Assembly: GCA_973895155.1 (NCBI GenBank) | Contig: OZ316893.1 | Coordinates: 15,530,645 to 15,594,644, forward strand | Reading direction: 5' to 3' | Origin: Marsupella aquatica | Taxonomy: Eukaryota; Plantae; Marchantiophyta | DNA length: 64,000 nucleotides | Shown: positions 25,756 through 58,377 of the stretch, in pieces | Layout: each line of letters begins with the position of its first letter | Position numbering within the stretch: position 1 is the stretch's first letter | Position numbers and translations under genes: made by a program | Notes under the pieces: model-generated | What the model saw: the letters and a program-made list of their open reading frames with translations, nothing else | What the model was told of the DNA's origin: nothing | Databases searched by the model: none

Positions 25756-25764
25756 TGAGATTTT

Positions 25765-28777: not shown

Positions 28778-28853
28778 AACCAATGTGCATTTCAAAGGCG
28801 ATTTAGTTCTGGTGGAAGACTTCAGAAAGGCTTGTGAGGGCACGGCGCCGCTT

Positions 28854-28863
28854 GAGGAGAGGG
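28854..28863 (+). promoter_or_regulatory. Polypurine tract
   Basis: GAGGAGAGGG, 3 nt before the 3' LTR. Confidence 0.8.
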
Positions 28864-28866
28864 CTA

Positions 28867-32150: not shown

Positions 32151-32373
32151 ACAAATCACGAGACTCATGATAATAGCACTCTTACAATAAAATAGTTACA
32201 GTCTGACTAGTTGAAAGGGTCAAATAAGTGATAAAACAGTAGAAAGTCCTTGCCTTCTTTAGAACTCAATACCTTGCTCCCAATCATGACAGAAACTCAT
32301 GGGGAAGCTCTGGTCACAATGTTCACAATGAAACACCTAGACAGGTCAGGCCAGGGCTCCAATGTTCTAATTC

Positions 32374-36984: not shown

Positions 36985-37862
36985 TCATTCTTGGTATCCC
37001 ATGCGTATGTGGCCAAAGAGTCTAGTCCTTTTTGAGGAGAAAAAGGATATCCTTTTAGTACCCCTCAATCTTGCCATCCACCTCATCTGGAATGTGGGTC
37101 GCACCACAAATGGCATTGAAGTCGACCACGGGAGCGACAGGAGACAATGATGATCAAGAGAATGATATTGAGGAACAAGACGAGCGGGCGACGCAAAATC
37201 ATTTTTCGACTCTTCAAAAGTGTCGGAGAGCAATTGAAGATGGATTCAATTACTTTGACGACAAAGATCGGCTATGGTGGGGTCGTTTTTTTGACAAACA
37301 AAAAGTGATTCAGCACCACCTGAAACTTGCACAATGGAGTTTTGATTGGAGTTGGCCCAAGGTAAACGTACAGAGAGAACCTACGACCAATCCTACGGAA
37401 GTAGCAATGGAACCTATCTTGGTTGATAAAATAGTGGGTGTGAGGACAGTCATGTATTCCGGAAGTCGGAGAAAAGTCACGGAAATTGGAGACTTCAAGG
37501 ATCTAGAGGTGAATACTAAATTTGCAATGATATGTGTTGCTGCCCATTAGGATCCAAAGGGAAGACCATTCTGGATGGCAAAAGTGACTGAGATTCTCAC
37601 AAAAATTAATGACATCCACAAGCAAATTAAAATCACTTGGTATGCAATGGATTTGGAAGAGGAGTCTGCAATTGAAGGCAAATATTATTCGGAGAAAGAT
37701 GCTTCGTCTAACAAAGTACTGGAGGATGAGCTGTCCCTAGCAGAAACTGCAGTTTATGCGTATAACTTTGCGTTATTGGCAAATAGTACTCTCCCTGTAC
37801 AAACAAGACGAATCATTCAAAATGCAATGATGGACACTGTAGTCGTTGATAGTAGAAGCTAG
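36985..37862 (+). pseudogene. C-terminal remnant of a Sola-like transposase
   Basis: ORFs 37071-37550 and 37575-37862 are joined across a TAG. DPKGRPFWMAKV..IKITWY resembles the C-terminal domain of the 43426-47208 transposase (HFWLVRAL..VEWW). The catalytic part is absent. Confidence 0.5.
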
Positions 37863-38313
37863 TGTAAAGGTTTTAAGTTATAATGGTTATCGTTAAGCTA
37901 GTTATCAATCCCATGAGGATGATTGCAGTCGTGAACATCTGGGACTAAGTATGTTGTTCTCCGAAGCTATAATTATATCTTTTTTTGAATTGATTGTAAT
38001 GACTAACTAGCTAGAGCGTGGAATGCAAAGTCCGATAATATTATCGACAACTCCATTCCCCCAGCTAGAACATCGTGACAAATAAGGGAGTGGAATAGCT
38101 AGAGCGTGGAATGCAAAGTCCGATAAGTCCCCAGCTAGAACACCGTGACAAACAAGGGAGTAGAATGCAATGTCCGATAAATTTATCGGGTTCAAACGTA
38201 ATTGCGATAAATTTATCACACTCCATTCTCCGAATATTGAGAAGTGGGACTGACATAATCTAACATAACCTAAACTAACCTAACCTAACTATCATACAAC
38301 CAGATAACAATTC

Positions 38314-41300
38314 CTAATCCAGTAACATGTCATTGAGATCATCCTCATTAGGCGTTCTGGGAGGTTCTTCGGCTTCTTCTTCATTCTCGACCTCCTTCAC
38401 GACTTCAACAGTGAAAGTCAAAGTCCCCAATGTTCCCAATTGGCCTCCAATTGGTGGTTGAATCTCTAGACCTTCGCCGCCTTGCCCTTCAATTTGTGCT
38501 TCATCATATAAATTCCAGTTTGATTCTAGAGTCATAATCTGATGTCTCACGAAATCAATCTGCGCAGCACTTTTATCGATCGCACAACCCTGGCGAGAAT
38601 TGAGAAGAGCCGCAGCTAACATGGATCCGGTTCCGCGGCAAAGATCCATAACCCAGTCATTTTTCTCCGAGAAATGAGTAACGAACCAAGCACCCAAACC
38701 AACAGGCTTTTGGTACGGATTCACAACATAGCCCAACGGATCAACAGACTTTTTGGTTACACATGGAACCTTGATGATATTGATGCGAGACTCATCCGGT
38801 TGGAAATTGTACATGTTCATGTTCCGGATGCCTTCCTCGCTGTAGAATCCCATCGACCAGTTTTTGAAACCCCACGCCAATTGAGCACCGGCGGGACGCT
38901 CATGAATGTTGGTCTTCTCCCAAATTCCAGACTCAACCCCATAGTTGCACATAGTCTCGAGCGTAGACATGACCATATTTGTTTGCTGTAATGAATGGAT
39001 CACAACAAACCTCCACTGCTTAGCAGCTGTCATGTTCGAAAAACTTCTCACCATATCTACAACGTCCTTTTCCGTGAAGGACACTTCATCAAACTCCAAA
39101 CCAGGCGCATTAAAACCATACGGAATGTCGGCGACGGCAAGAGTGTAAGGTTTTGCCTCCACAAAAGAATCCAAAATTCGAACATCCCCAACATGGAGAT
39201 AGTAAGGGAAAGAATCTCTGTCAGCATTTTTCCATATTTGCTCCGCGGCTTCTCGTGCGTCCTCGCCTAGCGCCTGGAGCCGGTTGTACCGATCAATTGC
39301 AGCAAGCACAAAATTCTTGAACACATACGGGATGTCAGCGGAGGGAACAATAACCTCCCCCACCAAATTATATTGCACAAGCGGAACAACTTTATTTTTC
39401 CGCTTTGACCCAATCTTCAGTTGTAACAAAGGTCGCACAGAATTCCAATCAGAATGAAATCGCTTAACAAATACGAAAGCCATTAAAAATCTTGGGAATG
39501 AAACGAGTTATGCAAAAATGTACTGATGGAATGGCAAGGCCGATAAAAATCTCGCGATGATTTTTGAATGGAACGAGGAATGCAAAAATCTACTAATGGA
39601 ATGGCAAGGCCGATAAAAATCTCGGGGAGAGACGGGTGCTTACCGCTTCGCTCGACTTCTCTGCCCATGTTCCCAGGACGGAAACATCCGTCTCATTTGG
39701 AAACATTTCTCTGCACGTTGCCCAGTTGGGCTGCCCATATATCTACAAGAATAATTTCTTCACCTTGGAAAGTTTTTTCAGCTTTTCCCCTTCCTTGTGC
39801 ATTTTATCCAAGGTGATCACTTTCCCAATGACCCTATTCAAGAGCCGCTTAACATGCTCCTTAGTTGACTGTCCTTGAAGACCTCGAAAAGTATTTAAAT
39901 TGAGGTCACCTGCAAGTTTATTCATTTTAATCTCTTTCAGCGTTAAAGGTTTAACCTTTCCCTTTGCATTTGTTGTTGCCACGATCTTTTTGGGTTGTCC
40001 CAAGACAGTCCCCTTCTCCCACATCTGGAAAACTTTCTCCTGAAGATCCCAAATTTCACCCGTTCGAAAAGCAATCTGGAATGTTGGGTCATGTTTGGCC
40101 ATGCTGTCACGAACACCGGGAGTGTATTCCAGCATACATTCCTGACAACAAGCTTCGCAAACATCCTTGTTTGATCCTACATCCATTTCAACAAAGATAT
40201 TGTGGCACGCACGAACTCTGTCGATATGAGTCATGTTCTTCCTATACTCCTGGTCATAATTGTGCTGGAAGACCAACTTCCAGACCTCCGACTTGGTAAG
40301 TCCTGCGTATACCCAAGCTTCCAGCTCACCATAAATCTGCTTCCCATACATTTTATACAACTCGGCCTTTGCCCGAGCACCATGATTTCCTCCAATAATT
40401 CTATACTTCCATACTCTGGACTTTAGAATGTCCCAATCCTCGATTGTGGGACAATCCTCCGGATCCACACACAGCACAAACGGTGCGCTGAAGTTAGTGG
40501 GGTTTTTCCTTAGAAGAATCTTGATATTCTCCACATGCAATTTGTCCACTGGTCTGATCAAAGGTGACTTCTCTCCAGCTTCATCAAAAATTATATTGTC
40601 GACATGCAAGAGGACAGTTGTCCTTTGAACCCTTTGCTGCATCAGCAGACTGAGCTCCGCTTTGATGGCGTCAGTCTCATACATCGAAAGAACAGTCTCC
40701 TCCTCTTCATCAATCTAGAAAACGCCGTTTGAAATTAGATTACGAAAGAAACAGCAAGATTTTTATCGGAATCCTCTTTCGTCAATAGAAAATCAAAGTT
40801 TGGTAGCACTTACCGATCAAACCTCGGCTTGTATATCTGAACAAGGCAAACGCTCGTCAATCACCGGAGGCTCCATGTCGATCGGGGCTTCCACTCCTTC
40901 CGGGGCTGTGGATAAACTCCAGCCTGTTCTCTTTCTCTTAACGCTGACTCCAGAACCAGATGGCCCCGATCCCTCAGATCCTCTACTCTCGCTTATATTT
41001 ATGTAAGGCGCTTTCGAAAGGCCTATACCTGCACCGGCTGCATGACCTCGACGATTGCCGCTGCCCCTTCTCCCGCCCTCGGAGGGACCAGTAACATCTT
41101 CCCTGATGTTCCCTCTCCCTCTCCCTTTCCCCCTGCCACTTCCCTTCCCCTAACCACTTTTGGGCTCGTCCAAAGCCGTACCTCCAGCGCTTTTTGCCGA
41201 TGAAGCTCCACTCCCGTTAGAACCAGGCCTCTTAATAACTATTTTCCGGATGGGTCTGAATTATTCACCTATGAGCCTCTTGTACTCTGCATTCACCCTT

Positions 41301-41788
41301 GGTAGCATGATGAGATCACAATCTTGGACAAACTGGCACACCCAAGCTGGGCCCATAAGATTCATTACTTTTGCTGACCTAACTTCCGTGACAAGCGCGT
41401 CTTCAGGGTAACTCTCAAGGGATTTCTGAAGAAAGTTCTCCATGGTGACAATGACAGAGGTGAATCCCTTGCCTCCACACATTGTCAAGAAACTCAGACC
41501 CTCTTTCAACACTTTTGCCTCTCCCTGGCTAATCAAGTACTCACAGATCGCCACACCAACGACGGGGCCAAATGAGAGAGTAACCTTTGCAGATTTTTGC
41601 ATCTGGACCCAAAGGATAGGAGACTCACTGTCTGCCATATCCTTGGATTGTAACTTGGCATCGCGGAAGTACCACGGTTTCTTGATGAACTTGACCTCTT
41701 CACAAATGTCTTTGCTTGTCCAAATTGCGTTCGTGAGGCTTGTCATGAGACTTTCCTCGGCAGATCCACTCTTCCCACTAGGACCCAT
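38314..41788 (-). pseudogene. ParB-like + beta-class DNA amino-methyltransferase fusion gene, copy 1 (spliced, premature stops upstream; MTase exon open)
   Basis: Exon from ATG 41788. ParB/Srx-like exon 39743-40715 (IRPVDKLHVENI..YRIIGGNHGARA). MTase ORF 38314-39483 with LAVADIPYGF (DPPY-like motif IV), VNPYQKP and WVMDLCRGTGS (SAM-binding motif I), in beta-class order. GT-AG introns near 40813-40716 and 39643-39490. Confidence 0.8.
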
Positions 41789-42127
41789 GATGACAAAGTC
41801 TGCAAATCTGAATGCAAGGAGCAATAAATTTATCGCTTTGACAAACCAAAAAAACCAAAAACCGGCATACAAACATCGATACAATGAACTCAGAAAGTGC
41901 TCATTCACGTACAAGCATTAGGTCATTCCACGAGCGATACCAACTCTGATAAAATTATCGCAAACAAATATGAGCACGATATAAATTGACGGCTGAGATT
42001 ACATTATCGTACGTGTCAACATCTGAAAATGAGACCAACACCGATAAAATTATCGCAAAAGTGGTCCAAACAAAAAGTGAGCCTTCTTTAAATTGACAAC
42101 CGAGTGTACATGTGATAATGTGCCTAA

Positions 42128-42806
42128 TCAATCATCCCACCCAAGATCAAACCGCGCTACAGCGAAGCGAGAGATTAGCTTCTTGGGCCATTGGGGTATA
42201 TGAGTGATCCTATGATCATAGGCCCACAGCCAATGAAAATCTGTGGCACCGGTCTCAGGATTAACTACAGCTACTGAATAGCGGCGTGACGGAACATCAC
42301 ATGCAACAGGCATTTGTGCAACACTGACACATCTCACCATTGTCAAGGACATTTGTCCATAAACAAGATACATAAGTTAACCTAAATAACGGACAAAGAG
42401 GTTGAGGGGGGAGTTGACGAACCTGTACGAATATAACTTCCCACCAGTGTCAATCAAAAACTCGGTAGCAAGAGGATTGTCCAGCTGGTCAATCACATCC
42501 TGAATCTCATCGAATGCTCTACGTCTGTTGTGGGCATAGAATTCTGGTTCATAGGCAGGATTGCCCTTCACAACATGATAGCAGTGCAGTATAAAACGTT
42601 TTACTGCACCGATTTTAAGAAAAAGCAGGATAATACTTCTAGAAAATGCAGCATATCTATCCCACTGGATATAAATTTCTCCCCCTACCTGGTCTACGTA
42701 GAAGTGATATGCGTTATTATAAAATGGGTTTGCTACTAGCTTGCAAATCTTTAAAATTAGTGATTCATCCAGCTTCCTTAGCTGGTCCATCAGGGCGCCA
42801 TTCCCC
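42128..42806 (-). pseudogene. 3' part of a small cargo gene (weakly F-box-like) split by the inner element; 5' part at 55898-55944
   Basis: Removing 42811-55897 and one CATT restores MLERRIFVPFVDPPEWGNGALMDQLRKLDESLILKIC in frame. ORFs 42377-42790 and 42128-42373 are in frame across one TAA. Confidence 0.7.
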
Positions 42807-42849
42807 CATTATCAGCCTATTCATTAAAAGTGTATTATTATTTGATTTA

Positions 42850-43175
42850 TGTACATTTGGGCAGTGAAAAGTGTACTTTTGGGCTTGGAAAAGTGTACAT
42901 TTGGCCAATGAAAAGTGTACATTTGGGGATAGAAAAGTTTACAATTGGCCTAAAGAGTGTACATTTGGGCAATGAAAAGTGTAAATTTGAACATCAAAAT
43001 AGATACATTTGGCTTTAAAAGTGTACATTTGAGTACATTTGGCCTAGAAAGTGTACATTTGAGTGCAAAATGCATACATTTGGCTTAACAAGTGTACATT
43101 TAAGTGCATTTGGTCTAGAAAGTGTAACTTTTAGTGCAATAAAGTGTACATTTGGCCTAAAAAGTGTACATTTGC
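42850..43175. repeat. Subterminal AAAGTGTACATTTGG array (also 55765-55850)
   Basis: More than ten imperfect copies next to the left TIR and four next to the right TIR, in the same orientation. Confidence 0.85.
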
Positions 43176-43425
43176 CTACCAACTCTTATTATAATCATTT
43201 AAAAGAAAGGAATGAATAGAAAAACATTTTTAATTATGTAGAAAAAGCAAACATTCATATTTATAATGATCAAAAGTTTAGAAAATGAGGAGATAGTATC
43301 ACATTAAAACTATTAGAATAGTAAATAACTAGTACATAAATTACTATGTTTGAATGAGTGACTATCTTAGTTACATAAAAACTAGTAACTATCTATTTAA
43401 TTATTATAGCTTCTAACAACTAAGT

Positions 43426-46400
43426 CTACTTGTCCATCCTTTGAAGATAATTTTGGACAGTTTGTAGAACATTTCGAGGGATCTTCAAACCTCTGCCTGC
43501 CATGTTTTCTTCTTTCATTCCAGATTTAAAACCATACATTGCAGAATTTGCATACTGCCAATGTTGAGTATTCTCACCAAACCCTGGATCTCGTTCCCAT
43601 GTCTTAGTGGACATGAAACAATTTAGATACCGCGCACTCTCAGTCACATCAAGTTTACTAGAGTGTTTAGGCCTCCACCATTCAACTGGGAACATTGGAG
43701 CGTACTGTCGAGGCAGAGAAGGGTTTGTTGAAGATGTAGTTGGGACTTCATGCTTTGGGTCCACCAAACCCAAAGCTCTCACCAACCAGAAATGACCTCC
43801 ACCATTTTTATTCTCCCAGTCATCCTCGGGTCGAAGAAATACAAAGTTTCCTTCACAAATATCTTGTAAAGGAATCCATCGTCCTTGTTCTCTCTCAGCT
43901 CGAGATCCAACAAATGGTGCTGCCTGATCTTCCATCTCTTCCAAGACCTCATTTTGAAGAGCCGTCATCTCTGCATTCTCCTCATCTTCACTTGGAGGAC
44001 CACTTTGTTCCGGTTGGTTGACCTTGTAACCAGTGCCGTGGTTAGTCTTAGGCCAAAATCTGTTTTCCAAGGGAAATTGAGTACTTCCCTCCCCTTCTAG
44101 TGCGAGCCCATTTGTCAACAACTCCACAATTCTCTCCCAATATTTCACAAGAGGAAATCTTTCCTTATATGCTATAGATGTCTCATCAGTGCAACTCCTT
44201 CTCAAAAAATCAAGGTACTTGTTAAGAAATGGGATAATCTCTTCAGATTTTTTGTGTATCTCTCCAATGGATTTAGCTAAGGGCTCTCCACTTGGTAAAA
44301 GAAGAGAATTTGTTGTCAGATCTGTTGCCCAAATGCACCTTCCACCAAGTGGAGCCCAAGCTTGCTTTACATGGGACTTATACTGAAATATTGGTACATT
44401 ATCTCTCATAGAGAAAAGAAATGATACAGGTTTTGAGTGACCTTGAATATCTTTCACCTTGAAAGTTTGAAGATATTCTTTGTAAGATGCAACTTCTTGT
44501 ATCAATCTGGGAACTGGATGAATGCTCTCGCATTCCCATACCTCTGCCATAAGAGCAAGGAGGGTTGCAACTTCTTTGTGCTGAACTTGATATGATACCT
44601 TTGAAAAGAGTGCATCAACATCTTCATGCGTATGACCAACCATTAGAAAAGACATTTGAACAGTTTCAAATACTCCTCTACTCACAAGCTCGCTACAAAA
44701 TGCCATGACAGTCTGGTTTTTGTTGTCCTTTGCTGAATTATCCATCTGCAATGTTAGGTGCCTTGGCAAGGGCTTGAACGATGGACTGCCTTGCTCTCCT
44801 TGCATGTCTTCTCCATCATCCTCATCTTGCTGGTTTGGGACGGTCTCAGTCCGACTCTCAGCTCCATCTTCAGAACCAATATACCTATTCACCGGTATAT
44901 TCTTTGGTTCCAAATAACCCGTCAAAAATGCTTCAAAGTCAAGTAGGGCTTGAAAGAAAGGTCTGTGAGGTTCCCAATGAAGGCCATCCAACATGTCACC
45001 TGTCTTGTCTCCATTGTACTCTTCAAGGTCTCGAAGACACTTAGCCAAGGATGTCACCGTGAAATCGACATCTCCTGGCCAAAGGCCAGTGACACTAAAG
45101 TGTGCATAAACTCCTGGATCCCTCCCGTGGGTCAACATCCCTGTGAGAGCAATAGGTAGCGGCATTCCATGACCCGAAAGAGATTTAGGAGTACTAACCA
45201 TTTTTGGAATCCATGTCTTTGCTTGATCCATCTTGTCGTGAATAATGCAAAGATATTCTCCTGGGTGTTGTTTGGCCATCACTCGATGAGCGTAGTAAAC
45301 ATATCTACGTGACATTTGCTCACGAAGATGTTGCGCTCGTTTTTCTTCAATTTCAGCACGTTCTTTTTTCCTTCTTTCTCGCATCAAACTGTCTTTGTAT
45401 TCACAACAAAGAGTACACTTGGCAAATGCACCATCTTTATGAAAACTGAAGTTTGCAAATGAGTTACTCCAGATCTTGTAGAGAGTATTCTCTGTGACAG
45501 GAGGAAGCCCTTCTTCCTTCATCTTTGTTCTCACATCTTCCAGAATCTCTAGCTTTTTGTAACACCCCGGAAGACGGTACTCAATAGAGTCTGTCCCATG
45601 TGCCCCTCCATAAGGCATATGAGGCATGGGCTCTGCATTTCGAGTCAAAAAAGCCTCCAACAGAGCTCGTGCATGCAAGGTATTTGCCCTTGTTTTCATC
45701 AAGCCCGTATTGCCATGGAACCCAATTTTGCAACCCTCCACATATCTCCTTTTGTAATCATAATATTTGGTGTGGCTAAAACCGTGGATAATTGCAAATG
45801 CATGTCTGCATACGACCATACCCTTAAGAACATGGTGTCCCTTATCACGAACATCATCCTCTCTATAGTGAAAGAGGTTGAAAATGTGTGACGTTTTTGA
45901 CTCGCTTGACATCCCATGAAATTCCATCCTAATATCTTCGATGTTTTCCCTTGGCATAATGAGACAACATTTTTGCTTGCAACAATTTTCTCTTTTCACG
46001 TCATCAATTGACGCCTCTGTTGTTTTTGAAATTGCCTTGGTTTCCAACAACCTCCTCTTCTTTTCATTTGGATCTACTTGATTCCTCTTGTTAAAATTGT
46101 AGGGCCTTGAACGCAGTACTCCTCTATCACTTACATCCGCATTGAGTTCATCCCTATCCATTGAGTCCATCCTTTCAGAACCTTCCACCAAAATATCTGA
46201 CAAAAATTTTCCATTTGCAACTAGTTTTGTTGAATCAATCCGCCATCGAATCAAACTCACTACTCCCTTGTGGATGTTGGGAAAGTATTGTGCTGCCACG
46301 ACATCTTTCACAGCAATCCCAACATGGTCATCACCAAGAATTTCATCATCAACTGCCGCCATCACTTGAGGGACAGTGATCGTTCCCGTGGCAACCATTT

Positions 46401-47208
46401 TGGTTCGATCCAAACCAGTGTAGAGTTCAACCAACTCTGACATCCAGTTTGCCCGATGAAAATAGTCACACTTAGTGTCTGTGGTGTTTGCCGAACAAGA
46501 CTGTGAAACAAAATCCGCCTTGTCCTTCTGCTTCTTAGAGGAAGATTTGTTGCTCCCATCGATATCAACATTCCATACTTTATTGTGGACGTCAGCCACA
46601 TCCCATAGAACCCAGGAGCCCTTTGCCTCTTCAATTGTTGCAGCTCCACCATGTGCGTAAGGTAAAGTCTTACTACCATGAATCACATCTGTGATTTTTA
46701 CACTAACCCGAGACTCACCGAGTAATATGTTATGACATCTCTCCATTGGATCAGTCTTGAAAACAACTCCAAAGGCCACACAATGGCCAGAGATAAACAT
46801 TTCAACCTCATCACCTGGCCTTAGGGTGGTCGAAGCATCCTCCTGTACATTTGCAGAATTATGGATGTTGTTATCTTTTCGAGTCGAACAACTACCAATA
46901 CTGATGCGTTTTTGAGTAATCTTATCCGCAGATCGATATGCACATGACATATCCCAAATGACACATGAGTCAATGGCATCATGAAGATTTTCCGCCCTAG
47001 GCATTGGAAAAGGGAGCTTCCTGGTCTCACCAAAGGCCTTCTCAATGAGAACCCCAATTCGATTATCTCCCAGCACAATATTTTGAACACTCTCTTGCGG
47101 ATCTGTCTTTTGAACTGTCCCATTTCCAACGTCGTAACCATCCATTGTCAAGGTCACATCATCGCCCCTAGAAAACCTTTGAGACATCCTTTTCCTATTA
47201 TCCTGCAC
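43426..47208 (-). CDS. Sola1-type DDD transposase (~1250 aa)
   Basis: FAKCTLC..H, IIHDKMDQ, LQMDNSAKDNKN and FLMVGHTHEDVDALFS. Three repeated N-terminal domains. Uninterrupted ORF inside TIRs with a 4-bp TSD. Confidence 0.85.
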   Translation of the reverse strand: MQDNRKRMSQRFSRGDDVTLTMDGYDVGNGTVQKTDPQESVQNIVLGDNRIGVLIEKAFGETRKLPFPMPRAENLHDAIDSCVIWDMSCAYRSADKITQKRISIGSCSTRKDNNIHNSANVQEDASTTLRPGDEVEMFISGHCVAFGVVFKTDPMERCHNILLGESRVSVKITDVIHGSKTLPYAHGGAATIEEAKGSWVLWDVADVHNKVWNVDIDGSNKSSSKKQKDKADFVSQSCSANTTDTKCDYFHRANWMSELVELYTGLDRTKMVATGTITVPQVMAAVDDEILGDDHVGIAVKDVVAAQYFPNIHKGVVSLIRWRIDSTKLVANGKFLSDILVEGSERMDSMDRDELNADVSDRGVLRSRPYNFNKRNQVDPNEKKRRLLETKAISKTTEASIDDVKRENCCKQKCCLIMPRENIEDIRMEFHGMSSESKTSHIFNLFHYREDDVRDKGHHVLKGMVVCRHAFAIIHGFSHTKYYDYKRRYVEGCKIGFHGNTGLMKTRANTLHARALLEAFLTRNAEPMPHMPYGGAHGTDSIEYRLPGCYKKLEILEDVRTKMKEEGLPPVTENTLYKIWSNSFANFSFHKDGAFAKCTLCCEYKDSLMRERRKKERAEIEEKRAQHLREQMSRRYVYYAHRVMAKQHPGEYLCIIHDKMDQAKTWIPKMVSTPKSLSGHGMPLPIALTGMLTHGRDPGVYAHFSVTGLWPGDVDFTVTSLAKCLRDLEEYNGDKTGDMLDGLHWEPHRPFFQALLDFEAFLTGYLEPKNIPVNRYIGSEDGAESRTETVPNQQDEDDGEDMQGEQGSPSFKPLPRHLTLQMDNSAKDNKNQTVMAFCSELVSRGVFETVQMSFLMVGHTHEDVDALFSKVSYQVQHKEVATLLALMAEVWECESIHPVPRLIQEVASYKEYLQTFKVKDIQGHSKPVSFLFSMRDNVPIFQYKSHVKQAWAPLGGRCIWATDLTTNSLLLPSGEPLAKSIGEIHKKSEEIIPFLNKYLDFLRRSCTDETSIAYKERFPLVKYWERIVELLTNGLALEGEGSTQFPLENRFWPKTNHGTGYKVNQPEQSGPPSEDEENAEMTALQNEVLEEMEDQAAPFVGSRAEREQGRWIPLQDICEGNFVFLRPEDDWENKNGGGHFWLVRALGLVDPKHEVPTTSSTNPSLPRQYAPMFPVEWWRPKHSSKLDVTESARYLNCFMSTKTWERDPGFGENTQHWQYANSAMYGFKSGMKEENMAGRGLKIPRNVLQTVQNYLQRMDK

Positions 47209-47249
47209 ACTGAAAAAAATGGATTACAACCAAAGTCATGCAAATTTTG

Positions 47250-48045
47250 ATTCAGACTGCGATCCTCAAAGTCTGGATTTGGACTACGATCCTTCAATTC
47301 CGGATTTGGACCGGGACCATCCAAGTCCGGATTTGGACTACGATCCTCTGATTCTGGATTTGGACTAGGACCATCCGAGTCCAGATTTTGACCGGGACCA
47401 TCCAAGTCCGGATTTGGACTGCAATCCTCTGAGTCTAGATTTGGACTACGATCCTCCGATTATGGATTTGGATTGGGACCATCCGAGTCCGGATTTGGAC
47501 TGGAATCCTCTGAGTCTAGATTTGGAGTACGATCCTCCGATTCTGGATTTGGACTGGGACCAACCCAGTCCAAAGTTGGACTAGGACCATCCCAATCCAA
47601 ACTTGGACTCGGACCATCCCAATCCAAACTAGGACTTGGACCATCCAAGTCCAAACTTGGACTCGGACCATCCCAATCCAAACTTGGACTCGGACCATCC
47701 TAATCCAAACTTGGACTCGGACCATCCCAATCCAAACTAGGACTTGGACCATCCAAGTCCAAACTTGGACTCGGACCATCCCAATCCAAACTTGGACTTG
47801 AACCATCCTAATCCAAACTTGGACTCGGACCATCCCAATCCAAACTAGGACTTGGACCATCCAAGTCCAAACTTGGACTCGGACCATCCCAATCCAAACT
47901 AGGACTTGGACCATCCAAGTTTAAACTTGGACTCGGACCATCCCAATCCAAAGTTGGACTCGGATGATCCCAATGCAAAGTTGGACTCGGATGATCCTAG
48001 TCCACATCTGAATCCAAACTTGGACTAGGACCATCCTAGACCAAC
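47250..48045. repeat. 21-bp minisatellite (TTGGACTCGGACCATCCCAATCCAAAC-type), probably in the 5' intron of the transposase
   Basis: More than 30 tandem units. The same unit occurs at 49270-49610. Confidence 0.92.
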
Positions 48046-49106
48046 CCATAATGTAACGGGAGATAAACTTCAAACATTTTAAGCTAAGAAAATTCCAAAT
48101 TTAGGAAGACTCCGTATTTTACGGATCTCCCTATATGGTGTAGCCTAAAGTTTGCGTGGTCTTAAGGTAGACCCTAATGTCTACATACAGTTTCATGAAA
48201 TAATGAAACCTAGCCTTATATTTGAATGCGTTAACCTTATACTCACCTTAGTATTAAGATCTGGTAGAATATGAATATCACATCCAAGGGGGATACATTG
48301 TTGTCTGTAGATTGGTAAAAACTTTCCCAGAACCCTGAAATACAAGCTATATGCCACTAAATCTTGGGAGTAAAAAACAAACTGAACCCTAAACCACACA
48401 TGTCTGTAAAAGATAAACTGAGAGGACCCCAAAAGTCAAGAAGCTGGCTAAGCTGACCCATTGAAGGTAAGTGGCTCAATACATAACACTTTAAGAGAAA
48501 CTCCGGATTACATGGAGCTTAGATTTGGGAAACTAGAACAAGAATGAGCTCCGAAGTGGGCGTCTCCCGAAATATACCCTTTGCTCGAGTCGGCTCAAAC
48601 GGAAATCGCGTGAAGATAAGGGTTGAGTACCCCTTCACCTTAGCTTGCGGCACACCTTATCTTCACGAGCCTAATTGCGCGGGGACTACCGTGCAAGGCT
48701 GTTAGGTAGGCAGGACATCAAGGAAGGAGGCCCGTATGCAGGGTGCGGGCAACGGGCCGTACGCAGGAGCAAGCCGTACGCACTATCAGGCCGTACGTAG
48801 GAGAAGGAGGCAACCGGCCGTACGCAGGCCGGGGTGAGGCAGGAGGGGGTAAAGGGACGGAGAGGTCCAGCCAGGACCTCATTCTCATTCTCACTCTTTC
48901 GCTCCTCACTCTGCTCACGCTCTCCACTCTCCGCCTCCGCTCTCTGCTCTTTGCCTCCACTCGCTCGCTCTCCTCGCTCTTTGCTCTCCGCTCTCTCTCC
49001 GCCTCCCCGCCTCTGCCTGCTTCCGCCTCCACCTCCATTCTTTTTCATTGCCCTAAATCGGACGCCTGCTAAGAAGCCACGTGTCACTCTGCCACGTGTC
49101 AGAAAG

Positions 49107-52100
49107 ATGGAAGCGAATCGCGTCCTTGTGAAGTCCTCCGTGGAAGCAACAGAGGAGTTTGACCTCTCCTCTATGAGCGACAGTGTAGAACTGGCACTTG
49201 AAGACTCCAAACAATTTCAATCAAGAATCCCTAGTAAGTATCCATCACCTATCCTCCCTAAGTCTTAGAGGACTGGGACCATCCGAGTCCAAAGTTGGAC
49301 TCGGATGATCCCAATCCAAAGTTGGACTCGGACCATCCCAATCCGAACTTGGACTCAGATGATCCTAATCCAAACATGGACTCGGATGATCCCAATCCAA
49401 AGTTGGACTCGGATGATCCCAATCCAAAGTTGGACTCGGACCATCCCAATCCGAACTTGGACTCAGATGATCCTAATTCAAACGTGGACTCGGATGATCC
49501 CAATCCAAACTTGGACTCGGATGATCCTAATCCATCCAGGAGATTGAATCTCGATTGTAGGAGCAAGTCTAAAACCATCTCAAGTTGGACTAGGACCATC
49601 CTAATCCAACAAGATTTATTCAAATGTTTTAAACTTAATAAGTCTAACATGGATGATGTTTTTATGATGCAGGGAGCGATCTTGTTGGTTTCAAACCCGC
49701 GATTGCACCGACCGACTGCCGGGACGGATTCTTACTAGATGAGAGATCCCCAGGCTTCCGATGGGGGCTTGAGTTCTCAAGAACCCCGCTTAATAATGAA
49801 GTGCCATCAAGCACGATTGAACCTGTTTTGACCTTAAAGTGCAGAGCAAATGATAGCCTGACTTTGGTTTGCGGACCTGTGGTCTCTGTTGGCATTGGAG
49901 GGAGAGGGATGAATTCGGTCATTCTGGAGATGCACGATAGGTCATGCTGGGTTAAAGTTAACCTTATGTCAAAGGCATACTCCTCAGAATTCTATGTCGA
50001 ATGGCACGCAAGTGGTGAATTGAGCGTTTTGTCAATGGGATTTTTTCCAAAGACATATGACACAAAGAAGTTGGTCATCGGGGTAACTGGTATGCTTCCA
50101 GTCGACATTATGTATGGGTTTCAATATTTGAAACTCAACATGATGAAGCACCAAGGCAATTTCTCTTTTGCAACTACTTGGACGTTAAGCAATTTACTTG
50201 AGAAAGTTGGATTGTTATCGTTGGAGTCAGAGGAGCCTGGTGTTTTAATTGATAAGGATGTTGCATTTGATCCCAACTTTGATTTAGTCAAAGCAAAGCA
50301 ATGGATAGAATCTTTGTCAAAGACGAGAAACCTTCCAACGGTGAATACAAACCCTGTGCCCGAGAAGGCGCCAGAGAAAGCTCCAGAACCTACAACAGAG
50401 ACCGCGGGAACTACAGCAGCAACCTCTCAAAGAGCAGTGGGAAAACAAAAACAAAGCCAAAGGAAACCTCCGGTTGAAAAGAAACTTCCAGTTGAGAAGC
50501 TGGTTGAGAAGCCGAGTACGAGAAGCCGAGTTCAGAAGCCAGTTGAGAAGCCGAGTACGAGAAGCCAAGTTGAGAAGCCAGTTGAGAAGAAACATTCGGT
50601 TGAGAAGCCAAGTGCAAGTGAAAAGAGGCCAAGACAAAAGAAGAAACAGAAAATTGACAGTGCCATCATGGATGACACTACAGAAAACCTGACAGTGCAT
50701 TCACAAGATATGGACGAGCAGTTGGACGCTCCTGAGGAGAAGAAGGTCTTAGAAGGTAATGAGGTACTACAACAAATGGAGCAATATTATACGTTTGGGA
50801 TCAATTCGATATTTTCTATTCCCGTAGAGAGTATTTTCCCTGCGTCGGCAAGACTCTGTTACAGAATGTTGAATGCAGACCATGTAAAGGAGGTGGCCAA
50901 TTCCATGATAAGAAATCCGGGGCATGAACCACACATAGCAGACTTGATTCCTTACACTACAAAACATAGAAACCTAATGCAATATGACAACACGGAATCA
51001 GATAGGAGGGACTTTGTAGCAGCCGTGAAAAAGGGGGAGGTTCAATTCCTTGCCATTAGCGGTCAACATTCGGCCAGAGCAGCCAGATGGATTCGAGAAT
51101 GGGCAAACAAGGATGCCAAGCTAACAGCATTGGCAAAAAAGCTGGAATTTCGAAAGTCAAGAATATTATCTCATCGAACACCATCATCAATATTAGTTGA
51201 GCATTCAATGCGATCTAATGCTATCAATAGCACGATGGTGTTTCAGTCATGCTTCAAAGATACAGTCGTTCATGCTAGGCGGCAATTTGTGGAATGTGGA
51301 AAACCTAGCCGGCCAAAACATGGGGACAACAAAACAAACGCTCAAGACAATCAAAAATTTCAGGTATGAAGTGTTACTGCTTGATTGGTACAATACCGTA
51401 GACTCTCCATGTGTGATTACAATTGAGATGGTAGTCTTTGACCACAAAGCTTCAAGTTTGCTTTGGATTGAGATGGTCCGAGTCCAAATGGATACATTCA
51501 CATTCAGTAGAATATTTCCACTGATATCGTCTAGTTTTGTGTTGGACTGGGATGGTCCCAGTCCAAATGGATTCATGCACATTCAATAGACTATTTCCAC
51601 TGATATTGTCTAGTTTTGTGTTGGACTGGGATGGTCCCAGTCCAAATGGATTCATGCACATTCAGTAGAATATTTCTCCACTGATACCGTCTAGTTTTGT
51701 TTTGGATTGGGATGGTCCTAGTCCAAACTAAATCATGCACATTCAATATAATATTTCCACTGATATTGTCTAGTTCTGTGTTGGACTGGGATGGTCTCAG
51801 TCCGCACCTGAGTGCTTTCAAACAATTGAGTTATGGAGAACTAACAGACTTTCCTTTGCAATTGTAGGATTGGTTGGCTCTTGCAAGAATGACCATGGGA
51901 AGGAAAGATTGTCGTAATGTCTACTGGTTACTGTTTGCCGACAATGCTCTTTTTGATTTATGGAGTTTGGTATGCCAATTGTGGTTGGATGGGAAACTTC
52001 CCGATGGAGCTGGTGTAGAAGGAAATGAGAAGTCTGAAAAAGCAATTACTGTTGCCATGTTTCGTTGTTTTGATGGTGAGTTGATCTCACAACGAGACAT

Positions 52101-54240
52101 CACAAGAATACTGACGCGGGTGAAGTCAGGAAAGGTATTGCTCAAGAAAGATGCCTCTAATAAATCAGACATGCCATCTATAGAGGAGTTGGCCAAAGAT
52201 GTGAAGATCGTGCGGAAACTCAAGTCCCTTATTGAAGACTACTATTGCACCAAGGATGCGGTGAATTTCCCGACAAATACTAATTGGGGGAAAGTAGTTG
52301 AGGTTCTTCCTACGCTAGCAATTGATTCAGAGTTCAGCAGGTGTCGAAGAGCCGCTGGCGAGGTCTATCTTGCCAACCTTTTAAAGCCAAATCATACGCG
52401 GGAGAGCGCAATCTTGCCGACGGCATTGGTATTCCGCCTAGATGATATATACTGCCAGAGATTTGGCGGAGGATCACGTTCTCGGACCCTACCATGGGTT
52501 ACATTTTTTAGCGACAATCTCATGAAGACCATTGATCCAGAGTCATTGCAAGAAGCTCCTCCGACCTGCCCTCTTGCCATTGTTGATTTTAGCCGGCTTC
52601 CACAAAAACAGTGGACTAAAGCAGAGATTCTTGTTCTCTTTGAATACATTGTGGAGCTTCCACAAAATCCCACGATTGTGGTGATGATAACAGTTCATCC
52701 TGGACAACTTGCACTGAATGTCCATGGTGCCCTTCGTAAATTGGGACAAGAGAAAGCTTTGACCATTCACATTGAGTATGGGAGTTATTCACGAGATGAT
52801 CAACCGCACCCTCATGACTCATGTTGGGGTGGAGGGATTGAAGAAGTTATCTTTGCAGGGATTTCTCGAGATGAAGACGTCAATTGGAATGAAGTTTTCA
52901 AGCCCAACTATCCAAAGCCAAAATTCTTGTATACTTCAAAGGATGTTGATTATGAAGTATGCAAGATCGACAAGGGAAAGGGGAAAGCTAAGGAATCAGA
53001 TGAGGGGACACAAAACGACGACCTAAAAGTGGTTTTGGACCCGGAAGAGGCCGTCAAGATTATGAATATGGCCCCTCGATTTGAGACAGTTGGTAGTCGC
53101 GGAGGATGGGTTAATCCTCATGCCAAACCCACGCGGATGATCCGAAGGATTATTGAATCCTTATCAGAACCGGGAGATTTGGTTCTAGATTTTTTCTCCG
53201 GTGGCCAAGTCATGAAGACATCATTTTTTTGCGATAGGGAATGCTTTGTTTATTGTGACTCTCAGTCCGAGAGGCATTTTGTGGAAGCTTTTGCTTCCTA
53301 CCTTTGCGAGAGAGTTCCCTCACTTAAAGCCCATTGTGAATCACTTGCTGAAAATTCTCGACAATGGGCTACCACTATTGCGGCTGTAGCTGTCGCTGTT
53401 GAATCCGACGGTTCTGAGTCTGAAGATGTTGCTGACAAAGTGGCTAAAGGCGTAGAGGCATCAGAGGAGGCATATGTCAAAAATTTGGATGACCGTGTTG
53501 GTCAAGGTGAGCCTTACGATGTAGATGATGATATTGGACTTGCACCAAACCGTTCATCTGGTTTAGATGACATCCCTTCGGGGCCCCATGAAGTTCAAGT
53601 TGATGATAACTTGGACAAGGATGATCCCAATCCAACAACGCCGGGAGGACAGATGGAGCAACTGGAAGGAGCAAGGGTTGATATGTTTGATCATCTTTCT
53701 TCAACCAATCTGATCAACGAAGGCGCAACGAGGCTTGGAGATTCAAATGAAGCTGAAACTAACGAATTGACTCGTGGGGAAGCCGGCGGATTGCCTGACA
53801 TTCCCATCAATCCAGGAGGAAATGCATCAACGGCTGCTGACAACCAGGCAGGTGCTTCAACTTGTCCTGACACACTCTTTTCAGCTTCTGATGACAAATT
53901 GGTGTTCGTTCGTTCACACTCGAGGAGTCCTGTTGTCCTTCCGTTCTCAAAAAAGAAAGGGAATAGAGTTGGATCAACTGGATGGAGGTCATTGGAACGC
54001 GACGCACGATGTTACGTGTGGAAAAGTGGGCCAAATCGAGGCCAAGAAATATCATTGGAAGCTGCTCCTTCAATTCTCAATAAGGAGGAGTATAAGAGGG
54101 GAGAATTGGGGTTCATAACTCCTGTTTGGACTTCTCCTTATTGGGTAGAACAAAGTACTTCAGATGTCAATTTTGAAATCCAACAGGAGCTTGGTGCTGA
54201 CATGATTATTGATGAATACGGATCTCTTATTTCGGAATGA
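49107..54240 (+). CDS. ParB-like + beta-class DNA methyltransferase-like fusion gene, copy 2 (exons 49107-49233, 49673-51363, 51868-54240; ~1396 aa)
   Basis: GT-AG introns keep the frame (phase 1, then phase 0). ParB/Srx-like YRMLNADHVKEVANSM..FLAISGQHSARA. MTase-like WVNPHAKP..SEPGDLVLDFFSGG, with motif IV degenerate (LAIVDFSR). No internal stops. Confidence 0.82.
49270..49610. repeat. 21-bp minisatellite in intron 1 of ParB-MTase copy 2
   Basis: TTGGACTCGGATGATCCCAATCCAAAG-type units, about 13 copies. Confidence 0.9.
51460..51810. repeat. ~80-bp tandem repeat (4 copies) in intron 2, each with the palindrome TTGGACTGGGA-TGG-TCCCAGTCCAA
   Basis: CCACTGATA anchors at 51518, 51597, 51678 and 51757. 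Confidence 0.88.
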
Positions 54241-54382
54241 AATTCAGCCTTTGACTTTCTATTTATTCATATCAATCTAAAATACTTCTCGGTCTCACAG
54301 AATGGGCTCACCAATTAAAGTCTCCATATCTGTCTACACATTGTGAGGCTTCTAAAAATGGTATGTAGGTTAATTTTCGTTT

Positions 54383-55516
54383 TTGTCAGCCATTGTGTTG
54401 TATTTTTGGACTGAGACAATCCTAATCCAAAGTTCACTTTTGGTCTTTTCTCTGAGAATGGTGTTTGGTGCACTTGCAGAATCGAGACCTGGTCCCGTCA
54501 AGCGGAAGTTGCTGATTTTGGACCTTAATAAAATACTTTGGGATTCTATTGAATTCCAAAGCAAGGGCACATCCAGGAATATTGTCACCTCAAGTGGAGT
54601 GCATTGGGATAGAAAAAATGGTATTAGTCGCATGTATACAGAACGACCAGGGCTCCATGAGTTTCTAAAGTTGGTTTTTGACAGATTTGACGTTGCAATT
54701 TGGACTTGTGCTGGGGTAGAACGAACAGTGAAAATGCTGAACATGATGTTCACTGTTGAGGAGCGGTTGAAACTTAAGTTTGTATTCACACAGGTGGAAG
54801 CCTTTGACACAGGCATTCAAAGGCGTGACATTACAAACGGAAAGGCAAATGTGCTACTGAAGGATTTTCAGGTGGTATGGAATGCATTTGGAAATCTGTA
54901 TGATGAAACCAACACCCTCCTTGTGGATGACTCCCCCCTTAAGGCATTTGCCAACCCAGACATGACCGGATTATTTCCAGTGCCCTACACGCATGCCAAT
55001 CGTGGAGATAATTTTCTTCTAGCAATTCTTTGGCCATGTCTTGAGAAACTATCACATGCAAGTGACATTCGATGCTATCTTCTTCTCAACTCTCCAAAGT
55101 GGTCTCTTTTGCACATGAAGAGAGACAAGGCAAAAAATGAGATTACTTATGATCAACTTAGCAAGAGATTTGCAGCAAAAATTTGGAAGTCACAGTTTAC
55201 ACATAGTGTGTTGGACCTCAACAGTAATGAGATCCCTTGGAATGTAAAGCACCGTATATGTAGTTTACGTCCTGAGGTGGAACTTGACAATGCACTTGTC
55301 AACTCACTTGCTAAATCATTTTTAGGAAAGGACTATTCAGGTCCATATAGAGAAAATCCCAGACACTTTTTGCGGGAGATTATAGCCATTAGGAACAACA
55401 CCACCAGATTTCAACTCCCTGAAAATAAAGTGAGTTGCAACCGTGACAATAGGGTAGATAGGAAAGGAGACAGGGGCACATGCTCAAATACACATTGTAG
55501 GGAGCACTTGGTTTAG
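54383..55516 (+). CDS. FCP1/SCP (NIF-family) HAD phosphatase-like protein
   Basis: RKLLILDLNKILW, RPGLHEFL, FDVAIWT, KDFQVVW and NTLLVDDSPLKAFANP. The true start is probably a short upstream exon (~54358) spliced to ~54480. Confidence 0.85.
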   Translation: MSAIVLYFWTETILIQSSLLVFSLRMVFGALAESRPGPVKRKLLILDLNKILWDSIEFQSKGTSRNIVTSSGVHWDRKNGISRMYTERPGLHEFLKLVFDRFDVAIWTCAGVERTVKMLNMMFTVEERLKLKFVFTQVEAFDTGIQRRDITNGKANVLLKDFQVVWNAFGNLYDETNTLLVDDSPLKAFANPDMTGLFPVPYTHANRGDNFLLAILWPCLEKLSHASDIRCYLLLNSPKWSLLHMKRDKAKNEITYDQLSKRFAAKIWKSQFTHSVLDLNSNEIPWNVKHRICSLRPEVELDNALVNSLAKSFLGKDYSGPYRENPRHFLREIIAIRNNTTRFQLPENKVSCNRDNRVDRKGDRGTCSNTHCREHLV

Positions 55517-56413
55517 ATATTTAATTGACTTGTGTTAAGCCCCTTGGATAGTACTAGAAACATGTTCGTATTCAATGTAAATTTGCAGATAATTGTATAA
55601 AGATATTTTATAATCTATTTGGAATGATGTTATTTTGTTCACAGAATATCTGGTCCTTAAATGGGGATGAAATAACTTTATAAGTTTTTATCCTCCATTT
55701 CTATGTGAGTTATTAAATAATATAATATGTATTATTTATTAATATAATATTAATGTGATTTGGCCTATAAAGTGTACATTTAGAGACACAAAAGTGTACA
55801 TTTGGGTGTCTTGAAGTGTACATTTGGGGACATGAAAGTGTACATTTCAGACTCATTTGTGAACAAAAGAAAATACACTTTTAATGAATAGGTTGATCAT
55901 TCCGGAGGATCCACAAAGGGTACAAAAATGCGTCGCTCGAGCATGGCCTGATCAGCGAATAGAAATCAGGAATATATTTTGGAGAACATACTCATTACAA
56001 TTCTACAAGTTTCATTCAACTTTATAGTACCTTGTATAACGGGCCGTGAAGCCAATGCACTTGTCAGCTAATTGTCCGTAGAGGCGCAAAAAATCTACAC
56101 TCTGGACCACACAACCCGAAGTCAGGCGAGGCAGGGTCATTTACATTCAAAGTGTTTTTTTACAAGCTCTTCTCGAGCAAACCTTAGAGCACCCAAAACA
56201 ATTGACTACTAAATCGACGAGAGGAATGAGGAGTGCGATAAATTTATCGGATGTTCGCAGCAATGCCTCATCCACTCAGACTTGTCCATGCCATGCAAGA
56301 ATTGTCCGCTTCCCGCTTTCTCCAAGATTCACCCAAACTCTAAGAAACGCATCTAATCGGTCATACAAGAAGCACCCAAGCATATCTATGGGAGGGAGGA
56401 AATGAGTTTCCTC

Positions 56414-56824
56414 TTAGAAGACCCTAGCAATATGTAGGTTTGAGAGAAGTTCGGCATTAGGAATGCTTGTGAGCATTTGGTTTATGTCATTAATCTCACG
56501 GACTGCATATTTCAGTAAAGCCCAAAATCGTGTACCAACAACAAGATGGTTCCATTTCTTCGAGGTGGCTCCAAGACAAATGATTGTTCTCATTCGAGCC
56601 AGTCGTTCTTTGGGTAAAAGTTTTAGGTCAAGGCCAAGGTGTTCATCTTGTGTGCAAGACAACGCCAAGAGAGGCCAAATGTGAGATTCAACGAGTTGAT
56701 CAGGAAGTCCATTCAACAGACTTCCGCATTCCACACCAGGCACTTTTCCTTGAATATATTTCCTACGCTCATGGGCTAATACGGATGCCATCTTAGCAAT
56801 GATTAGGTTCTTCGACGTAGCCAT
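56414..56824 (-). CDS. Small F-box-domain protein (136 aa)
   Basis: SLLNGLPDQLVESHIWPLL...CLGATSKKWNHLV follows the plant F-box pattern (LLPGLPD..I...V.K.W..L). Confidence 0.65.
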   Translation of the reverse strand: MATSKNLIIAKMASVLAHERRKYIQGKVPGVECGSLLNGLPDQLVESHIWPLLALSCTQDEHLGLDLKLLPKERLARMRTIICLGATSKKWNHLVVGTRFWALLKYAVREINDINQMLTSIPNAELLSNLHIARVF

Positions 56825-57018
56825 GAAGTAGAGCTACCAAAACCACCAATAAAAGCACCTTCAATCACCAGGTGTAACCGAAGATATCCACAGTACCAAC
56901 CCTGCACGACAGTTTAAAGATTAGGACTCGGACCATATTGTATTTGCTGCACATGGGTAGGACTTGTTTACTTAAATGTGTCCTTACAAAATGCGCCTCA
57001 ATGTGAAGGTCGCAACAC

Positions 57019-57348
57019 TCATCGTGAAAGGTTGACCCAAGGGTCCTCGTTCCAAATCTGACAACATAAGTATGTCAATTTATGGTACTTGTTGTCAAGA
57101 CGACGACAACAATAGTTACAAGAAAACTCCAAAGAATGGAGACACGCCGTTAACATCAACCTCGAACGGATTGGAACTCCTGCACCATTCATTCCGCAGA
57201 ACTCAATCCGGAGAGGATTCTGCCTATCTCCGGGATCAGTATCACCCATCCACAACGCTCCTACACCAATGGGGAGAACTTTACGTTGCACGAGTTTCTT
57301 GTACAACCGGCGTGCACGTTTGACATGATTTTGAATTAAGACAGCCAT
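57019..57348 (-). CDS. Small Cys-rich hypothetical protein (109 aa), cargo of the outer element
   Basis: ATG-initiated ORF on the same strand as the neighbouring cargo genes, with CNYCC..LCC. No recognisable family. Confidence 0.35.
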   Translation of the reverse strand: MAVLIQNHVKRARRLYKKLVQRKVLPIGVGALWMGDTDPGDRQNPLRIEFCGMNGAGVPIRSRLMLTACLHSLEFSCNYCCRRLDNKYHKLTYLCCQIWNEDPWVNLSR

Positions 57349-57479
57349 TTGTCACTATACCTTTGATCCACCGAGTGCAATCGACCTTTCGTTGTGCCTT
57401 CTAAACCCTGCAGCACTGCGACATCATAGAGGAAGATGAGTCTCCAAACAAAATAGAGGAAGATGAGTCTCACAAGAGG

Positions 57480-57930
57480 GTGCGATAACTTTATCGCACC
57501 TCGCATTCATCTTGAAGACATGACTCCCTCACACACTCAAGCAATCTTCAATCAATCACAAGAATGGAAACTCCGATAAATTTATCGAAGTCTCAAGCAA
57601 TCCTCAATCAATCATTGGAATGGAAACTCCGATAAATTTATCGGAGTCTCAAGCAACCTTCAATCAATCACAGGAATGGAAACTACAATAAATTTATCGG
57701 AGTCTCAAGCAATCTTCAATCCATGACAGGAATGGATATTCCGATAAATTTATCGGACCTTGAATATAATTTATGGAATGAATTCGCACTGGATCAAAGG
57801 AATGCAACAGAGGAATGCAGAATGCGATAAATTTATCGCAGTCCTCTCGGATCAGTACATTGACACCAAATGACAAGTCAACCTTACATGGATGATACTC
57901 GATTGGAATGGTAGTTCCAATAAATTTATC
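57480..57930. repeat. 56-bp tandem repeat and dispersed copies carrying the palindrome CGATAAATTTATCG
   Basis: Units start at ~57536, 57592, 57648 and 57704. Further palindromes at ~57483, 57825 and 57920. Confidence 0.88.
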
Positions 57931-58377
57931 GGGTTCTCTGGAGAAAGAGTCAAGTCTCTTGGGAGGAATGCAAGACTTGATAGGAGTTCAGTATTCACTC
58001 TGAGTGAGGTGTTGTTCGCTCCGGCAAAAATAAACTTTTTATGGGCAGCCCGCTCCTCTTTATATAGGGGATGCTCTAACCATGGTAACTTTCCCTCTTA
58101 ACCATGGTTACTTTCTGCCTTAACCCGGGTTAGTGCGTGGTCGACCCTCGATTATGTGGTTTGGGACCAAGTTACTCGCAGTTCGGACTTTTTCACATAC
58201 CGAATGTAAAACCCGATGCACGTATCGCTCCCTGCATTCCCGCGGCGATGCAATGTAGGCAACTCATTTTTTTTAATTTTTCGGCAGTTTTATCGAAGAT
58301 TGCATTGCCTTAGAAAAAAATGGAATCGGGCTAAACGAGAAGTGTGTCACACTTCTCGGTCGGTCCAAAATCGTGTT

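Follow-up and report, generated by a model that had tools for sequence, protein, structure and literature searches.

The window analyzed here is a 64,000-nucleotide stretch of the liverwort Marsupella aquatica (GenBank assembly GCA_973895155.1, contig OZ316893.1, positions 15,530,645 to 15,594,644 of the forward strand), and all coordinates below refer to it. It contains an intact, multicopy cut-and-paste DNA transposon of 13,087 bp (42811-55897) with a 4-bp target duplication, CATT being present at each side. Together with a DUF7869 transposase, this transposon carries gene 2, encoding a protein with a ParB fold and a methyltransferase fold, and gene 3, encoding a NIF/HAD domain protein. Our analysis led us to favor, at about even chances, a reading in which both genes are parts of the transposon itself and the gene 2 product binds palindromes within the introns of the element, probably as a non-catalytic helper of transcription or mobility.

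The original prediction for this DNA had described clean terminal inverted repeats (TIRs) and a CATT target site duplication (TSD), and both were confirmed. The 26-bp left TIR (42811-42836, plus orientation) matched the right TIR (55872-55897, minus orientation) at 25 of 26 positions, and the 19-mer core of the repeat was found at two sites in the window, namely the two element ends (0.02 expected; none of 100 shuffles gave two). The CATT copies lie at 42807-42810 and 55898-55901. Present inside both ends are subterminal repeats with a TGTACA core, of 20-22 bp at the left (42850-43178) and of 22 bp at the right (55769-55847), which from their sequence are likely to be transposase-binding sites. 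The empty-site comparison that had been proposed as a check returned contigs in which 42806 was joined directly to 55898, with 13,091 bases skipped and four letters fitting both sides, in three of the four public runs, at depths of 516.8 (X1), 169.2 (X2) and 10.5 (X5); for run X4 no such joint was present among the 15 of 76 joints listed. Removal of the element together with one CATT reopened the reading frame of the interrupted flanking gene. A 2-bp AT duplication was rejected, since under that model the flanking frame broken by the insertion retained two stops and since the empty-site joint shares four letters. Sola1 elements have a target preference for AWWT, which the single TSD read here, CATT, does not fit. 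No filled junction at the exact site was observed among the pieces listed for X1 and X2 (148 further pieces lie outside these), and in those pieces flank depth was flat up to the insertion site; taken together, these observations do no more than hint at insertion polymorphism. Since the flanks themselves belong to a multicopy element, with a depth of about 450-1,400 in X1, the empty sites may represent paralogs, from other copies of that host element, rather than alleles.

The left terminus was joined to many unlike flanks, in at least 15 contigs of X1 and at least 17 contigs of X2 (17 further rows being outside these counts), with a flank agreement of about 0.5-0.7 where several contigs were pooled. 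Among those listed, contigs with a unique junction had depths of 15-26 in X1 (six long pieces) and 19-53 in X2 (eight pieces). Near-identical contigs in X1 had a depth of 455 for the transposase (two differences in 991 bases), 364 and 383 for exon 2 of gene 2, and 431, 403 and 402 for exon 3. Expressed as rough multiples, given that contig depth is not copy number and that one of the runs possibly comes from the same source as the window, the transposase and gene 2 in X1 were about 18-22 times as deep as the median unique junction (depth 20) and the terminal core about 59 times, while a diverged sister family in X2 reached depths of 2573 for the transposase (about 69 times), 1439-2415 for exon 3 (38-64 times) and 900 for the NIF gene (about 24 times). 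These values indicate, roughly, a recently amplified family in which gene 2 moves along with the transposase. The earlier description of a young, mobile multi-gene element was thus supported, both by the many insertion flanks and by the roughly similar contig depths of transposase and gene 2.

The transposase is encoded on the minus strand by an open reading frame (ORF) at 43426-47187, of about 1,253 amino acids from the first Met, and was assigned to the DUF7869 (Sola1-like) DDD-type family (Pfam PF25273, E 7.3e-43). Its acidic motifs are intact (HDKMD at 45240, QMDN at 44748 and HEDVD at 44628). Residues D652/D655, D817 and D857/D859 were invariant in all 21 aligned transposase sequences, from which we infer that they form the DDD/E catalytic triad. 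Searches returned 46 homologs, the best being 50% identical over the whole searched region and 58% over part of it; homologs from Riccia sorocarpa were 33-51% identical and those from mosses, including Physcomitrium DUF7869 proteins, 26-31%. Judged by these homologs, the host is likely to be a liverwort. Sola1 elements have been recorded for Physcomitrella. Coding variants (28 rows among the 40 of 1,758 listed) were skewed to synonymous changes in the transposase, with 8 of 12 being synonymous (p 0.004). The three genes had been described as uninterrupted, and their ORFs indeed run without stops or frameshifts, although gene 2 has two predicted introns. The enzyme would bind the TIRs and the 22-bp subterminal repeats and then cut and paste the element.

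Gene 2, on the plus strand, was modeled as three exons encoding 1,396 amino acids with GT-AG introns and no internal stop. Exon 1 (49107-49233) is predicted from the ORF and splice model alone. A 27-bp tandem array fills the first predicted intron (49234-49672) and a 79-bp array the second (51364-51867). Exon 2 (49673-51363), identified by homologs and by fold, encodes an N-terminal domain, a Lys/Glu-rich linker of tandem peptide repeats and a ParB/Srx-fold domain (about 50734-51363), while exon 3 (51868-54240), identified by structure matches, encodes a helical domain, a beta-class amino-methyltransferase fold (about 52483-53337) and an acidic tail. The splice from exon 2 to exon 3 is bridged by two proteins of Calypogeia fissa (P0048 and P0077), and two Riccia proteins (P0143 and P0149) hold the ParB domain and the S-adenosylmethionine (SAM) motif of the methyltransferase within one chain. 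No usable match to the N-terminal domain was obtained in an Atlas search.

The ParB domain, with homologs in 101 clusters, was modeled with a predicted local distance difference test score (pLDDT) of 94.8. Its structure matched Noc (Foldseek E 9.6e-4), PadC (Z 7.4, root-mean-square deviation (rmsd) 3.5, 99 residues aligned), ParB, KorB and sulfiredoxin at 8-21% identity; the scores were individually middling and the identity of the matches was consistent, the top eight presumably all being members of the ParB/Srx superfamily. No match to this domain was found by Pfam, NCBIfam or PDB sequence searches, apart from DndB, weakly, in 2 of 54 sequences. Compared with ParB, Noc, KorB and sulfiredoxin, the core fold is the same, with GQHS (at 51061) standing in for GxxR. 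In a language-model comparison, the region 50734-51363 had ParB_N and a set of fungal clusters as its nearest neighbors. One of these clusters was DUF3723 (score 0.94), known as a conserved cargo gene of Starships; this is a lead only, as the likeness is one of features and not of alignment. No description of DUF3723 together with ParB was found in the literature searched.

The exon 3 structure matched CcrM with Z 16.6 (rmsd 4.5, 210 residues aligned; Foldseek E 6.2e-7), and Z values of 14-16.6 were obtained across CcrM, MboIIA, RsrI, PvuII and N4CMT. Motif IV precedes motif I, as in the beta class, and the DFSR at 52585 was placed as motif IV by strand order. The fold, the motif order and a putative KP..DFF SAM segment are common to gene 2, CcrM, M.RsrI, M.MboIIA, M.PvuII, rotifer N4CMT and Marchantia DN4MT1. 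What sets gene 2 apart from these beta-class enzymes is the lack of (D/S)PPY, the fusion to ParB and its location on a transposon. Motif IV reads DFSR, DFGR or DLAR, and the canonical (D/S/N)PP(Y/F) was absent in all six sequences compared, in which the aspartate of motif IV and the putative SAM loop DFFSGGQV (at 53188 in gene 2, as DFFSGGQ) were invariant; M.RsrI reads DFFAGSG. Homologs of exon 3 were 31-48% identical across 94-98% of the region, which, like the many ParB homologs, points to constraint over long periods. The ParB-methyltransferase identity first assigned to this gene therefore holds for both folds, with the qualification that the ParB domain is unseen by Pfam and NCBIfam and that the methyltransferase is without a canonical motif IV.

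Gene 3 (54458-55516, plus strand; about 352 amino acids, with the start inferred) encodes a NIF/HAD domain (Pfam NIF E 2.2e-15; 57.2 bits against a cut-off of 21.8) followed by a conserved C-terminal extension. Earlier named an FCP1-like phosphatase, it does have the NIF domain but is nearest to UBLCP1/HAD-IIID (UBLCP1 E 3.5e-12) and less close to FCP1, and the catalytic DxD is replaced by DxN. Motif I of FCP1, SCP and UBLCP1 HAD phosphatases is DxDx(T/V), whereas that of gene 3 reads DLNKI (at 54521); among 13 homologs, 11 had DxN, one had ELVG and one was truncated, with none having DxD. The NIF domain and the motifs RP.L..FL and DDSP are common to gene 3 and UBLCP1, FCP1 and SCP, from which gene 3 differs in its DxN and its lineage-specific C-terminal extension; no ubiquitin-like or BRCT domain was detected. 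As both cargo proteins are without the canonical catalytic motifs, "methyltransferase" and "phosphatase" are used here as names of folds and not of activities, and on their sequences both are probably pseudo-enzymes or proteins of altered chemistry. Two side observations concern this gene. In a comparison of ENA contigs that took in 20 of the 101 ParB homologs and no chromosome-scale records, contigs of 6,073 bp held P0085 (a homolog of the ParB exon) and P0060 (a NIF homolog); this single match among 168 pairs is an unverified coincidence. A metagenome scan covering 22 of 64 parts yielded distant transposases alone, and a broken NIF-like gene was present at 3 of 80 distant transposase loci (L012:3592-5379, also L013 and L014, apparently one site), lying at L012 about 5 kb upstream of the DUF7869 transposase and divergent from it, in the same relative layout as in the Marsupella element.

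A 25-bp imperfect palindrome, TTGGACT-N-GGA-NNN-TCC-N-AGTCCAA, was found in 41 copies (up to 4 mismatches), all of them inside the element. Introns or 5' non-coding DNA held 39 of the 41: 23 copies lie 5' of the transposase ORF in a 27-bp tandem array (47255-48045, a predicted intron), 11 in a 27-bp array in intron 1 of gene 2 (49268-49610) and 5 in a 79-bp tandem array in intron 2 (51463-51803), with one further copy in exon 3 and one before gene 3. Perfect palindromes numbered 34 in the element compared with 5-9 in five Markov controls. The palindrome is distinct from the subterminal repeats, and its arrays bracket a GC-rich segment between the divergent transposase and gene 2 (48600-49106), which is GA-rich at 48700-48870 and CT-rich at 48880-49045 and includes five CCGTAYG repeats (48732-48825). 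The reality of this segment, pointed out from the start at 48600-49100, was upheld by its purine fraction, which was 0.56-0.76 at 48700-48850 and 0.14-0.18 at 48900-49050; GC content over 48600-49100 was 0.60 and the observed/expected (o/e) CpG ratio 0.83. The mirror-image GA/CT layout makes it a plausible candidate for a bidirectional promoter. Across the element CpG o/e was 0.39-0.68, compared with 0.20-0.22 in a neighboring CACTA element.

The overall design has a published counterpart in a brown alga. Sola1-1_Ec32 of Ectocarpus, a 21.5-kb element with a 4-bp TSD, carries a gene for a ParB and N4C/N6A methyltransferase protein on the strand opposite to the transposase; this accessory protein was proposed to bind its own sequence, and similar proteins were reported on transposons of green and red algae (PMC12477816). 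The liverwort element has the same divergent ParB-methyltransferase layout and 4-bp TSD, and while the best transposase match of Sola1-1_Ec32 is Sola1-1_PPa of Physcomitrella, the transposase described here also has Physcomitrium homologs. The core design is therefore known and the liverwort element is a variant of it, not a new kind of element, which weakens the premise of the original prediction that several genes are a novelty for Sola elements, described as having a single transposase gene. The two differ in length (13 against 21.5 kb), in termini (a 26-bp TIR with an ATCA terminus against a 282-bp imperfect TIR with AACCG) and in near-identical copies (apparently about 20 against 2 intact copies). 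As Sola1-1_Ec32 is described, the occurrence in a land plant, the NIF gene, the degenerate motif IV and the intronic palindrome arrays belong to the liverwort element alone. No description of a liverwort version, NIF cargo, degenerate motifs or intronic palindrome arrays was found in the literature searched, outside which stand Bao 2009 and the Bostrychia paper. Methyltransferases fused to ParB and helix-turn-helix domains have been recorded in chlorophytes and chytrids, with few such enzymes in land plants (Iyer et al., PMC4738411).

A second point of comparison, in the way of working only, is provided by the VANDAL elements of Arabidopsis, which belong to the Mutator-like group. VANC proteins bind family-specific tandem motifs in VANDAL introns and upstream of the transposase (PMC5735166), and the two systems have in common a multi-gene make-up, tandem family-specific motifs and an accessory protein with tandem peptide repeats (PMC5735166, PMC13317346). 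VANDAL elements are non-TIR, whereas the Marsupella element is a TIR-bounded DUF7869 element, and while binding and demethylation have been demonstrated for VANC, gene 2 is known here from its sequence and fold alone. Domain searches, which did not include a direct homology comparison, detected no VANC-type domain in the element.

The transposon is itself inserted in a second multicopy element, which spans about 38.0-58.3 kb (parts 38000-42806 and 55902-58300) and encodes, on the minus strand, a protein with an N-terminal domain (41261-41917), a ParB-like domain with GGNH (39743-40714) and a methyltransferase domain with DIPY (38314-39507). This DIPY is near-canonical, and from its sequence the host-element protein is possibly a catalytically competent relative; similarity between this protein and that of gene 2 was weak, with an hhalign probability of 48% for the methyltransferase and 9% for ParB. 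A different palindrome, CGATAAATTTATCG, occurs 14 times in the host element, with no copy inside the inserted transposon. An F-box-like gene (E 0.066) of the host element is broken at the insertion site. The ends of the host element were not found.

In our preferred interpretation, the transposon would be a Sola1-like element of autonomous type with genuine accessory genes. The gene 2 protein would recognize the 25-bp palindromes around the candidate divergent promoter, much as VANC does with VANDAL motifs, and its methyltransferase fold would serve to bind DNA or SAM and not to write methyl marks. The DxN NIF protein would be a weak or dead phosphatase that binds phosphoproteins, for example the tail of RNA polymerase II, and the gene 2 helper would sustain transcription or mobility of the element. 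Several results weigh against this interpretation. Among the variants listed, no skew to synonymous changes was seen in gene 2 (4 of 13, p 0.48), in gene 3 (2 of 3, p 0.18) or in the pooled cargo (6 of 16, p 0.25). GxxR forms the arginine patch of ParB CTPase clamps, and in the ParB domain of gene 2 it is replaced by G110 Q111 H112 S113, the serine being found in 48 of 54 sequences. None of the 80 distant transposase loci (39 of them of at least 10 kb) had a ParB or methyltransferase homolog beside the transposase. In the sister family of X2 the depth of the NIF gene is below that of the transposase, so that gene 3 may be missing from some copies. Arrays of another palindrome, AAGGACT..AGTCCTT, occur at 31.7-32.0 kb where no ParB gene was found, and such arrays are thus not specific to ParB carriers; likewise, a long terminal repeat (LTR) retrotransposon copy in the window had a CpG o/e of 0.63, so that the milder depletion is not unique to the element.

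Three other explanations were weighed. Were gene 2 an active N4C/N6A methyltransferase with a non-canonical site that marks its own palindromes, as proposed for the algal elements, the complete beta-class fold and the invariant aspartate and DFFSGGQV of motif IV and the SAM loop in six of six sequences would be accounted for, the host-element version with its DIPY would fit, and Marchantia is reported to have active beta-class N4-methylcytosine (4mC) enzymes (bioRxiv 2021.02.12.428880). We nevertheless judge this improbable, as PPY has become FSR, FGR or LAR in all six sequences, and in CcrM and N4CMT the target base is described as being bonded and stacked by the proline and tyrosine of this motif (PMC10406627). 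A ParB-type clamp on parS-like palindromes, joining the ends of the 13-kb element and having no role in silencing, would be consistent with the ParB/Noc-type fold, with the fungal DUF3723 neighbors, and with the ParB accessory genes reported on giant elements (PMC12477816). Against it, the arrays are central, around the promoter, and not near the ends, and the arginine patch is altered, which makes a clamp of this kind unlikely. Palindromic targets do resemble parS sites in form.

The third explanation, that genes 2 and 3 are passive passengers and the arrays ordinary minisatellites or transposase sites, is compatible with the within-family cargo variants, which agree with neutrality, with the distant moss- and alga-type transposase loci that lack gene 2, and with the Riccia locus tags, in which transposase and ParB-methyltransferase matches are not adjacent (cluster representatives only). 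It was hard to reconcile with open frames of 1,396 and 352 amino acids whose non-canonical motifs are conserved family-wide, with contig depths that in two subfamilies are similar for gene 2 and the transposase, or with the same divergent layout in the brown alga (PMC12477816), and we regard it as quite doubtful. A more specific form of the helper interpretation, which we put forward tentatively and as rather less than probable, is a family-specific lock-and-key self-activation, in which a ParB and pseudo-methyltransferase reader would sit on intronic parS-like palindromes that vary from family to family, two such families being nested in the window, and the pseudo-phosphatase would provide the link to RNA polymerase II.

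Other features of the window were recorded alongside. A fragment related to the host element (3890-5200) holds four more copies of CGATAAATTTATCG and has a CpG o/e of 1.05; within it, 4948-5135 is 84% identical to 58193-58377. The CACTA element (9598-14830; Transposase_21, DUF4218 and DUF4216), one ORF of which encodes an NSD-like PHD finger, is strongly CpG-depleted, as given above. It is followed by a tandem array of units of about 585 bp (74-86% identical) and then an 83-bp array (18600-22560), and by the LTR retrotransposon (23773-30852), a very recent insertion with 1,986-bp LTRs that are 99.9% identical and a gag-like ORF at 27950-28777. In the region 31700-36700, the AAGGACT..AGTCCTT arrays flank a minus-strand gene (32374-35474) that is transposase-like but broken and has no Pfam match. 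On visual inspection, a plus-strand fragment at 37000-37860, with one stop, looks like a DUF7869 transposase C-terminal domain. Viral contigs gave 96 pattern matches, none of which was confirmed.

For ParB-methyltransferase accessory proteins of algal transposons, binding and modification of their own elements has been proposed, and the Marsupella element adds a young and intact land-plant example, present in many copies, with a concrete candidate target. As it is nested in a host ParB-methyltransferase element with a different palindrome and a near-canonical motif, the two form a natural swap pair. Should the lock-and-key form be true, it would be a VANC-like anti-silencing system of independent origin, built from bacterial parts, and a target site would have been named for the ParB-methyltransferase class of transposon accessory proteins. 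Family-specific binding, if true, would show selective evasion of silencing by transposons and would offer a programmable DNA-binding scaffold. Otherwise, these data describe a well-defined family of cargo transposons in liverworts which is under-annotated by standard domain searches.

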